The translations under genes were made by a program, and so were the position numbers. From an uncultured Clostridia bacterium (GTDB lineage Bacteria > Aerophobota > Aerophobia > Aerophobales > B3-G15), in contig CAYZYX010000012.1 of NCBI GenBank assembly GCA_964482715.1, forward strand, positions 1 through 41,287: DNA of 41,287 bases, read 5' to 3'. How positions within the stretch are numbered: position 1 is the first letter of the stretch; every line of letters begins with the position of its first letter. Below, piece by piece: positions 14,341-15,846 of this stretch. The notes under the pieces are model-generated. The model worked only from the letters and a program-made list of their open reading frames with translations. It was not told the origin of the DNA and searched no databases.

Positions 14341-15024
14341 TTAAGGAATTTTAATTACTATCTCCACCCTGCGGTTGCGAGTTCTACCCTGGGGAGTATT
14401 GTTTGGAAAAAGGGGACGATACTCACCGTAGCCTACCGCCGAGAGGAGCTGCCTGTTTACGCCTTTTTTCTCCAGATATTTAACTACATTGATGGCTCTT
14501 GCTGCCGAAAGTTCCCAGTTGGAGGGGAATCTTTCGGTGTGAATGGGGAGATTGTCGGTGTGACCTTCCACCCTTACCTGATACTGATATTCCTTCAGTG
14601 CTGGTACTAATTTATCCAGGATTTTTCTTGCCTCTGGCTTCAATTCAGCCTCTCCCAGATCAAAAAGTATCCTGCCCGGGAGCCGCAAGATCACACCTTC
14701 TGCTCCAGGAACAATCTCTATAGCCTTTCTTTCTTCTCCTAAAATCTCTTTCAGGGAGGCGGATAGCTTTTTCTGTAATTTCATTTTTTCCTGTTGTATG
14801 AGGTAGTCAAAATCCAAAGGTTTCTCCCTGCCAAAAAGTATTCCGGCTCCTCCACTGAAAAAAGCTTCACGGAATGAGTAAAGTCCTATTTTTAACTTTT
14901 TTTCCTCTATCTGTCCCATGGAAACAAGAACGATAAAAAAAGTCATCAAAAGTATCATCAAATTAGCGTAAGTGAGCATAAAACTTGACCTTGATCCTTC
15001 ATCTGATCTTTTTTTAAGAGCCAT
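14341..15024 (-). CDS. motB: Second MotB-like stator subunit lacking the conserved TM Asp
   Basis: TM [16 protein letters not shown]; OmpA-like domain [23 protein letters not shown]. Confidence 0.88.
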   Translation of the reverse strand: [227 protein letters not shown]

Positions 15025-15846
15025 TTTTCACTCTGACAAATATTTCTACTCTTCTATTTTTCTGACGGTGCTCAGGAGTATCATTGGGAAAAAGCGGACG
15101 GGAATCAGCGTAACCTACAACTCCTATCCTTGAGGGAGTAATACCTTCCTGGATAAAATATCTGGCCACACTTATTGCTCTTGCTGCCGAAAGTTCCCAG
15201 TTGGAAGGGAATCTTTCGGTGTGAATGGGGAGATTGTCGGTGTGGCCTTCCACAATAATTTNNNNNNNNNNNNNNNNNNNNNNNNNNNNNNNNNNNNNNN
15301 NNNNNNNNNNNNNNNNNNNNNNNNNNNNNNNNNNNNNNNNNNNNNNNNNNNNNNNNNNNNNGGGAATCTTTCGGTGTGAATGGGGAGATTGTCGGTGTGG
15401 CCTTCCACAATAATTTCATTGGGCAGTGGCTTAATGATAGCCGATATTTCGTCAAGTAAAGGTAAAATCTGTGGTCTCAACCCGGCTTTTCCCAGATCAA
15501 AGAGTATTGGACTTGCTAAACTGATCCTCACTCCTCCTTTTACCAGCTTAACTTGCACTTCACTTCCCATACCACGAGAGACAACTGCGTAGTGTATCTT
15601 TTCGGCAATTTGTTCACTTTCTCTAACTATTTCAGGAGATGAAACTATGACTGGTTTTGTCCTGTCCATCATCCCCAGTGCCCCTCTCAAAGAACCAAGG
15701 GCATCTTCCATTTTACTTTTATCAAGATGAGTAGCAGCAAATAGCATAACAAAAAAGGTAAGCATGAGCGACATGACATCGGCAAAAGTTGTAAGCCATA
15801 CCGGATCGCCGGATCTCTCGGGAACCTTTTTTTTCATGTCTTTCAT
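15014..15846 (-). CDS. motB: Stator subunit MotB/PomB-type (split only by an assembly gap)
   Basis: WLTTFADVMSLMLTFF; removing 100 N plus the 55-nt overlap duplicated either side (15207-15261 = 15362-15416) gives one in-frame 225-aa ORF. Confidence 0.9.
15262..15361. other. Assembly gap (100 N) with duplicated 55-nt flanks
   Basis: N run; identical sequence left and right. Confidence 0.98.

Follow-up and report, generated by a model that had tools for sequence, protein, structure and literature searches.

In the 41,287-nt stretch of DNA analysed here (the window; contig CAYZYX010000012.1 of assembly GCA_964482715.1), the main flagellar gene cluster of an uncultured sediment bacterium (assembly of 1.57 Mb in 54 contigs, 94.7% complete) contains a single motA gene followed by two genes encoding stator B subunits. 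The first, motB1, codes for a canonical MotB, and the second, motB2, for a paralogue in which an asparagine stands at the position of the ion-binding aspartate. Comparison with related sequences confirms that this asparagine is neither a private mutation nor an error: Asp in MotB1 and Asn in MotB2 are found together at eight of eight orthologous loci, and the 39 proteins nearest to MotB2 are all devoid of the aspartate. MotB2 is thus a conserved and selected, Asp-less subunit. We tentatively favour for it, with slightly less than even confidence, the role of a second axle subunit in a stator of composition MotA5-MotB1-MotB2, in which a single site conducts ions.

A conserved MotB paralogue without the ion-binding aspartate

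The earlier note on this DNA, drawn up from the letters alone, had described one MotA with two MotB paralogues, and its description is borne out by the open reading frames (ORFs) and their translations. MotB1 reads WLTTFAD where MotB2 reads FMLTYAN, with an AAT codon at the site of the aspartate; the upstream tryptophan is missing from MotB2, phenylalanine standing in its place; and MotB2 is of full length, with an intact peptidoglycan-binding domain. The count holds for the whole assembly, in which the only two MotB_plug matches both lie at this locus. The MotA_ExbB matches of the assembly are three in number, and the two outside the locus, on other contigs and with open frames 212-213 aa long, are read as TolQ/ExbB-sized, the motA of the window being read as the single flagellar MotA. 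Among the NCBIfam models, this MotA scores best against PomA (284 bits) and MotP (271 bits), below the cut-off in both cases, and it passes NF006583, 'flagellar motor protein' (241 bits for a cut-off of 237). Since its best scores are those against PomA and MotP, it may be coupled to Na+ rather than to H+.

The three stator genes are tightly spaced. motA and motB1 overlap by ATGA, and motB2 begins with an ATG (15024-15022) before motB1 has reached its TAA (15014-15016), this overlap of 11 nt being the one that had been noticed earlier. The start of motB2 is not preceded by a clear Shine-Dalgarno sequence, unlike that of fliL downstream. Taken together, the overlap and the lack of a clear Shine-Dalgarno sequence suggest that translation of the motB1-motB2 pair is coupled.

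MotB2 (227 aa) matches the Pfam family MotB_plug (PF13677) over residues 7-55 with 51.6 bits (cut-off 24, E 7e-14) and the OmpA family (PF00691) with 82.2 bits (cut-off 27.2, E 4e-23), the latter over the full model (1-98 of 98). When it is compared with solved structures by phmmer, its asparagine aligns without any gap with the aspartate of MotB 6ysf. It falls below the NCBIfam cut-offs of the named stator equivalogs (MotB, MotS and MotD), the best being MotD (NF006541), with 179 bits for a cut-off of 283. This does not single MotB2 out, because the normal MotB proteins of such pairs fall below as well: MotB1 of G004, a genome of the same family as the window's, reaches 185 bits on NF006541, and this MotB1 and a Desulfobacterales pair (see below) are under every NCBIfam cut-off. 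In annotation, the Asp-less proteins go under the names 'OmpA family protein' or 'MotB'.

When 40 genomes of relatives were searched with MotB2, MotB-type matches were obtained in nine genomes of the order, not counting that of the window; the other genomes of the order among these 40, several of which are less than 90% complete, gave no MotB match with this query. An Asp-bearing motB1 is directly followed by an Asn-bearing motB2 at every locus complete enough to judge, i.e. in the window's genome (G000), in three genomes of the same family (G001, G004 and G005) and in four genomes of three other families (G008, G009, G015 and G030), which makes four families in total. Two contigs (G007 and G013) end at or just after motB1 and were left out of the pair count. 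In the seven other genomes, motB1 carries the motif W-x-x-T-F-[AG]-D and motB2 the motif [FY]-x-x-x-Y-[AT]-N, and the MotB2 orthologues are 54-75% identical to that of the window.

The earlier note had left room for a private mutation or an error, in which case close orthologues would all keep the aspartate. In a search of 5.8 billion proteins, the 39 best matches to MotB2 (230-490 bits), one of which is named by its source 'Candidatus Aerophobetes bacterium', carry Asn (35) or Thr (4) and in no case Asp, which appears from match 40 on; nine of the 35 Asn proteins are called from a later start codon, and their residue was assigned by eye. The Asp-then-Asn pair is also present on five public contigs, two from genomes (L036 and L037) and three from metagenomes (L117, L118 and L119). 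The sole Thr-type metagenome locus (L116) begins 261 nt upstream of its motB2, so that the neighbouring gene falls outside it. Sequence words of the window are found in 19 public contig datasets from 18 studies, seven of which hold at least half of the words and none of which is RNA.

The change is not confined to the aspartate. All the MotB N-termini fetched were aligned to one profile, and positions were counted from the Asp column. The 246 distinct Asp-bearing sequences have Trp at -6 in 233 cases, Thr or Ser at -3 in 243 and Thr or Ser at +3 in 237. The 34 distinct N-termini of the MotB2 family have Asn (30) or Thr (4) in the Asp column, never Asp; Phe (18) or Tyr (7) and no Trp at -6, nine rows being too short; Leu at -3 in 28 cases; and Met, Ile or Val at +3 in 25. 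Leu(+1), Met(+2), Leu(+4), Thr(+7), Phe(+8), Phe(+9) and Ile(+10) are invariant in the family, and the L(+4), L(+5), T(+7), FF pattern that is specific to MotB is retained. In 18 MotB2 sequences, L22, M23, L25, M27, T28, F29, F30, I31 and V34 are invariant, the helix being the most conserved part of the protein, and so are G-H-T-D and N-R-R-V-E in the peptidoglycan-binding core and about 50 other columns. On this count, one face of the MotB2 helix is turned hydrophobic, and conservation elsewhere along the helix is no lower than in MotB1, and perhaps higher. A relocated carboxylate was considered and rejected, as no Asp or Glu is found in the MotB2 helix or in the transmembrane helices TM3 and TM4 of MotA.

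In a tree of 76 MotB sequences, MotB2 and MotB1 each form one clade (Shimodaira-Hasegawa-like approximate likelihood-ratio test, SH-aLRT, 100% for both), and their inner branching is congruent. The same inner grouping in both clades points to one duplication before these families split. As judged from this tree, MotB1 and MotB2 derive from one old duplication, the sister relation of the two clades being left undecided. The two proteins have kept matched lengths (225 aa for MotB1 once its scaffold gap is collapsed, and 227 aa for MotB2). Purifying selection, which the earlier note had suggested looking for, is found on MotB2: synonymous divergence (dS) is saturated in most genome pairs, and in the nine of 28 pairs where it is not, the ratio omega of MotB2 ranges from 0.075 to 0.187. 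Nonsynonymous divergence (dN) is lower for MotB2 than for MotB1 in 21 of the 28 pairs (e.g. 0.270 versus 0.368 for G000-G008, and 0.176 versus 0.232 for G000-G004). By these measures, MotB2 is under purifying selection no weaker than that acting on MotB1.

Gene conversion and the predicted MotB1-MotB2 contact

The motB1 gene of the window is broken by a scaffold gap. When the 55-nt exact repeat that flanks it is collapsed, an intact MotB1 is restored, which is 69-76% identical to MotB1 of G001, G004 and G005. Could MotB2 itself be an artefact or a product of decay, i.e. a sequencing error, an assembly chimera across a repeat or an incipient pseudogene? The gap does lie in motB1 at a repeat shared with motB2, and chimeras in public protein sets look like collapsed assemblies. 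This explanation is nevertheless scarcely credible. The contig to the left of the gap by itself carries the MotB1 C-terminus and then the whole of motB2, so that the tandem arrangement holds whether or not the scaffold join is right. Moreover, the same pair is present without any gap in the seven other genomes and on the five further public contigs, Asn or Thr is found in 39 of the 39 nearest proteins, the reading frame is unbroken, and omega stays far under 1.

A tract of 78 nt, where the gap is located, is 75/78 identical between the two genes of the window, with flanks at about 50-55%. This tract encodes the peptidoglycan-binding core and the dimer helix. The same comparison over the window and the relatives (loci L029-L035) shows that the motB1 and motB2 cores are 92-100% identical in five of the eight genomes (G000, G001, G004, G005 and G008), with 82-87% for G009 and G015 and 63% for G030; flank identity is 45-64% throughout. 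The variable residues of the tract (HT-E/K/Q-R/E-F) differ between genomes and agree between the two paralogues of one genome. Such likeness within genomes, while dS between orthologues is saturated, amounts to ongoing gene conversion, which explains the scaffold gap of the window, the public chimeras and the likeness of the two peptidoglycan-binding cores. The chimeras (P0040, P0041, P0042 and P0046, one of them from a 29-kb contig) join a MotB1 N-terminus, with the aspartate, to a MotB2 C-terminus, and could reflect assemblies that collapsed or genuine recombination events that deleted the MotB2 helix. A short tract common to both genes is thus enough to break or collapse metagenome assemblies.

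As motB1 of the window is broken, the pair of G004 was used for complex prediction, which was run on the periplasmic parts (residues 66-222 and 66-226, each with its alignment). The pair obtains an ipSAE score of 0.65, versus 0.10 for the best control; the mark applied is reached by 116 of 157 solved complexes and by 2 of 215 mismatched pairs. Three prediction runs agree on 100% of the contacts, and the predicted local distance difference test (pLDDT) of the partner is at least 87. The predicted interface includes the WELSAARAI helix (MotB1 163-175, MotB2 164-184), which lies within the gene-converted tract. Because homodimers of MotB C-terminal domains are solved, passing this mark shows likeness rather than binding. 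The fact that the interface helix is common to both paralogues nevertheless suggests that the periplasmic domains cannot tell self from partner. Mixed dimers should then form, and would be the commonest species if the levels of both proteins are similar.

Features of the stator locus (strand - is the minus strand of the window)
Feature	Position	Strand	Description
flbD	16663-16854	-	directly 5' of motA; Pfam FlbD E 7e-25
motA	15843-16622	-	259 aa; Pfam MotA_ExbB E 4.5e-33; sole MotA_ExbB match in the genome adjoining a MotB
motB1	15014-15846	-	canonical stator B subunit, DPVWLTTFAD; MotB_plug E 4e-15 (N-terminal piece), OmpA E 4e-16 (C-terminal piece)
Asp codon GAT of motB1	15778-15780	-
Scaffold gap of 100 N within motB1	15262-15361	.	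55-nt exact repeat on either side
78-nt tract of motB1	15176-15253	-	gene-conversion partner
motB2	14341-15024	-	Asp-less MotB paralogue, 227 aa, SSFMLTYAN; transmembrane helix ~14914-14982, then plug, OmpA-like domain 14371-14667
Asn21 codon AAT of motB2	14962-14964	-	at the ion-binding Asp position
78-nt tract of motB2	14494-14571	-	75/78 identical to motB1 tract
fliL	13783-14325	-	directly 3' of motB2; Pfam FliL E 4e-21; own strong Shine-Dalgarno AAAGGAGG

From their Pfam matches, the genes of the minus-strand cluster are arranged in the order fliF, fliG, fliH, fliI, fliJ, flgD, flgE, flbD, motA, motB1, motB2, fliL, fliM, fliN, fliO, fliP, fliR, flhB, flhA and a FliA-type sigma factor gene. 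A second scaffold gap of 100 N (20291-20390) is located inside a 677-aa ORF (18950-20983), between flgD and an ORF with a MgtE_N match. The cluster is flanked by HD-domain signalling proteins (49-1779, 36327-37889 and 37908-38792; PAS-GAF-HD_5, GAF-GAF-HD_5 and HDOD, respectively), which look like second-messenger control of motility, as well as by a methyl-accepting chemotaxis protein and two sigma-54 activators. A 372-aa ORF (4815-5933) contains the sigma-54 DNA-binding domain only (residues 225-367), with a weak HTH_3 match; no sigma-54 core-binding or activator-interacting region was detected in it at E 1e-5.

Asp-less MotB proteins in other lineages

MotB-like proteins devoid of the aspartate are also found outside the MotB2 family. 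Genome contigs were scanned at 80 loci, which were picked by their likeness to MotB2 and are not an unbiased sample. At 18 of them there is a non-Asp MotB-like ORF, whose immediate neighbour is an Asp-bearing MotB in all 18 cases. Two of these ORFs belong to the Asn type. In the 16 others, from contigs titled for the most part Desulfobacterales or Desulfobacteraceae, the residue is Gly 13 times, Ser twice and Cys once; here the Asp-less gene precedes the Asp-bearing one, and motA is not their neighbour; at one locus (L042, 2971-4451), the order is motB'(Gly)-motB(Asp)-fliL-fliM-fliN-fliO. The Gly/Ser/Cys sequences form a clade of their own (97% support), apart from MotB2, which indicates that the aspartate was lost in these families independently of MotB2. 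Their helices are hydrophobic at -3 in 22 of 27 cases and at +3 in 26 of 27. A distant genome (G036; L015, 485-2010) has two MotB-like genes in tandem, of which the first encodes Ser at the Asp site (IMLFVSLSVILLSFF) while the second is canonical; both proteins lie on very long branches of the tree.

A further 151 proteins were scanned, made up of 144 new identifiers among 150 listed representatives of a profile search and seven from the first protein search. A MotB N-terminus was found in 124 of these, with Asp (109), Ser (8), Ala (2), Thr (1), Asn (1) or Gly (1) in the Asp column, two being truncated. At 50% clustering, the MotB2 family is reduced to one full-length representative (P0021) and a 133-aa fragment (P0043), and the search of representatives therefore broadened only the other Asp-less families. 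One of the proteins (P0122, 473 aa) consists of an OmpA-like domain, a MotB helix with Asp and a second OmpA-like domain, which might be an unusual architecture or result from the fusion of two gene calls. Asn, Thr, Gly, Ser, Ala and Cys have only the lack of charge in common, which argues for the loss of the site rather than for a new ion chemistry.

Possible roles of MotB2 and comparison with known systems

In the arrangement that we favour, for which we see somewhat less than an even chance, a MotA pentamer would surround a MotB1-MotB2 heterodimer in place of a MotB homodimer. The MotB2 helix would occupy the second central position, its plug would help to seal the unit ahead of incorporation, and the OmpA-like domains of MotB2 and MotB1 would pair on the peptidoglycan. 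Ions would be conducted on the MotB1 side only, and MotB1 alone would gate rotation; the neutral Asn or Thr of MotB2 would never wait for an ion and never block rotation. MotA would then advance by about 72 degrees, not 36, for each ion that MotB1 takes up, with a halved ion cost per turn and a lowered maximal torque per unit. The preprint of Santiveri (10.1101/2020.05.15.096610) has MotA rotating only around a charge-neutralised Asp, the two Asps being engaged in turn with 36 degrees per ion, and sets aside a 72-degree scheme because just one Asp would carry ions. A MotB1-MotB2 axle would be an instance of this case. The broader proposal of a natural single-site stator, using one ion per 72 degrees rather than 36 as a half-cost, lower-torque gear, and evolved independently in at least two lineages (Asn/Thr here, Gly/Ser/Cys in Desulfobacterales), is more doubtful.

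The earlier note had offered either an asymmetric heterodimer or a natural brake or anchoring subunit. MotB2 as a conserved, selected and Asp-less subunit stands, and the heterodimer gains indirect support from the co-inheritance and tight spacing of the two genes, from their matched lengths, from the hydrophobic ion-path face with a preserved packing core, and from the predicted periplasmic heterodimer with its gene-converted interface helix; a single-site stator and a brake or anchor are not separated by these data. Several points weigh against the heterodimer. The assembly into MotA5, the 1:1 ratio, the stepping and the energetics are inferences. The co-inheritance, the duplication, the selection, the loss of the helix face, the absence of a moved carboxylate, the coupling and the Desulfobacterales pairs all fit MotB2 homodimers in MotA5 equally well. 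Either homodimer would probably also pass the complex prediction, which is then non-discriminating. The AAT codon is that of the assembled sequence. In E. coli, MotB D32N is dominant-negative, which would suggest that mixed dimers fail in this species. The preprints of two stator-structure papers (Santiveri, 10.1101/2020.05.15.096610; Deme) treat the Asp as universal or invariant, favour the alternate use of both Asps and report the Asp to be absolutely required in Salmonella. The Deme preprint further describes W26 of MotB, where MotB2 has Phe or Tyr, as 'completely conserved', and its W26A mutant has lost motility. On the other hand, had mixed dimers poisoned the motor, they would hardly have persisted from before the radiation of the order.

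One alternative is that MotB2 forms homodimers in MotA5, giving a rotor- and peptidoglycan-bound, non-conducting brake, placeholder or load-holding unit that competes with MotA5(MotB1)2, or that a random mixture of B1B1, B1B2 and B2B2 units tunes the output. We consider this unlikely, even though MotB2 retains its plug, packing core and peptidoglycan-binding domain but has lost the entire ion-path stripe, the common interface helix gives no bar to homodimers, and engineered Asp-to-Asn stators assemble normally, the C. jejuni D22N structure being almost that of the wild type, with an r.m.s.d. of 0.297 A (10.1101/2020.05.15.096610). Such a brake is difficult to reconcile with a motB2 that is co-transcribed and translationally coupled with motB1 in a core operon, without its own regulator, as a constitutive 1:1 poison looks wasteful, and the shared periplasmic interface should make mixed dimers the commonest species anyway. 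MotB2 could alternatively act outside MotA, as a membrane-anchored, peptidoglycan-bound scaffold resembling MotY, PflB or T-ring parts, which would recruit or hold MotA5(MotB1)2, perhaps via OmpA pairing or FliL. The position of motB2 directly upstream of fliL and the intact peptidoglycan-binding domain are in agreement with this role, and the predicted MotB1-MotB2 periplasmic contact would serve a scaffold too. It is improbable, however, given that the helix is the most conserved part of MotB2 and that its MotB-specific pattern and MotB_plug match are kept, which is hard to explain for a mere anchor.

Finally, MotB2 might carry ions by another chemistry, for instance with its Asn or Thr coordinating Na+ together with MotA residues, both half-channels being at work. 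The best scores of MotA against PomA and MotP make Na+ possible, and both Asn and Thr can ligate this ion. The polar residues at -3 and +3 are however lost along with the aspartate, no carboxylate compensates for it, and the replacing residue varies (Asn 30 and Thr 4, with Gly, Ser, Ala and Cys in the parallel families), so that we regard this chemistry as very improbable.

A conserved Asp-less subunit that is inherited together with a normal MotB and shares one MotA with it would be nature's own test of the current rotation models, which rest on the two MotB copies taking up ions alternately. Either a single ion site suffices to drive the motor, which sets the step size and the ion cost of such a unit, or cells deliberately make silent stator units, and this would amount to a novel form of control over the motor. 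In the single-site case, the 'invariant' Asp would be needed in one of the two axle chains, and strict alternation would not be obligatory. Desulfobacterales have cultured members. The recurrence of Asp-less MotB proteins in this group and the precedent of chimeric stators between Aquifex and E. coli make the question testable at the bench.

No description of a natural Asp-less MotB and no paper on a flagellar MotB of Aerophobetes were found in literature searches, which covered few subscription journals. Like canonical MotB, PomB and MotS (the nearest solved ones being 6ysf, 8ucs and 6ysl), MotB2 has one N-terminal transmembrane helix with an L-L-x-T-F-F core, a plug and an OmpA-like peptidoglycan-binding domain, and its gene lies by motA in a flagellar operon. 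Unlike them, it has Asn or Thr for Asp, no Trp(-6) and no polar residue at -3 or +3, and always occurs with a normal MotB. In dual-stator systems (MotAB with MotCD, or PomAB with MotAB), several MotB-type proteins serve one flagellum, each with its own A subunit and its own Asp. The locus described here differs from these in having a single MotA and one B subunit without Asp. As for the surroundings of the site, the sole polar transmembrane residues of C. jejuni MotB listed in the Santiveri preprint are Y20, D22 and S25, i.e. positions -2, 0 and +3 (10.1101/2020.05.15.096610). The engineered Asp-to-Asn mutants of MotB presented there (C. jejuni D22N, 6YKR; Salmonella D33 mutants) have this very substitution at this position, where it serves to imitate the Asp in its protonated, neutral form. 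In these mutants both copies are changed and the cells are non-motile, whereas the substitution of MotB2 is natural and ancient, affects one paralogue only and comes with further changes in the helix.

The motA/motB1/motB2 operon of Aquifex aeolicus (PMC4525482), the closest gene arrangement in print, has the same order, one motA and then two motB. The N-terminal and transmembrane regions of its two MotBs, both with the Asp, are 97% identical, with one difference (Gly20/Ser20), while their periplasmic parts have 23% identity and other linker lengths, and each gave some motility when its periplasmic part was replaced by that from E. coli (PMC4525482). The situation here is the reverse, as the two proteins diverge at the transmembrane ion site and have a homogenised periplasmic core, and MotB2 as a counterpart of the Aquifex MotB2 was rejected on account of this opposite pattern of divergence. 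A likeness in composition is seen with the AglR-AglQ-AglS gliding motor of Myxococcus xanthus (PMC11761067, PMC9389320), in which one A-type pentamer subunit is combined with two different B-type subunits, and for which an AglQS heterodimer within AglR5 has been predicted, the review leaving a heterodimer or homodimers undecided. That motor belongs to the TolQR branch, is non-flagellar and is without OmpA-like domains. AglR5-AglQ-AglS is nevertheless the only precedent that we found in print for a 5:2 unit with a mixed axle, such as the one proposed here for MotA, MotB1 and MotB2.

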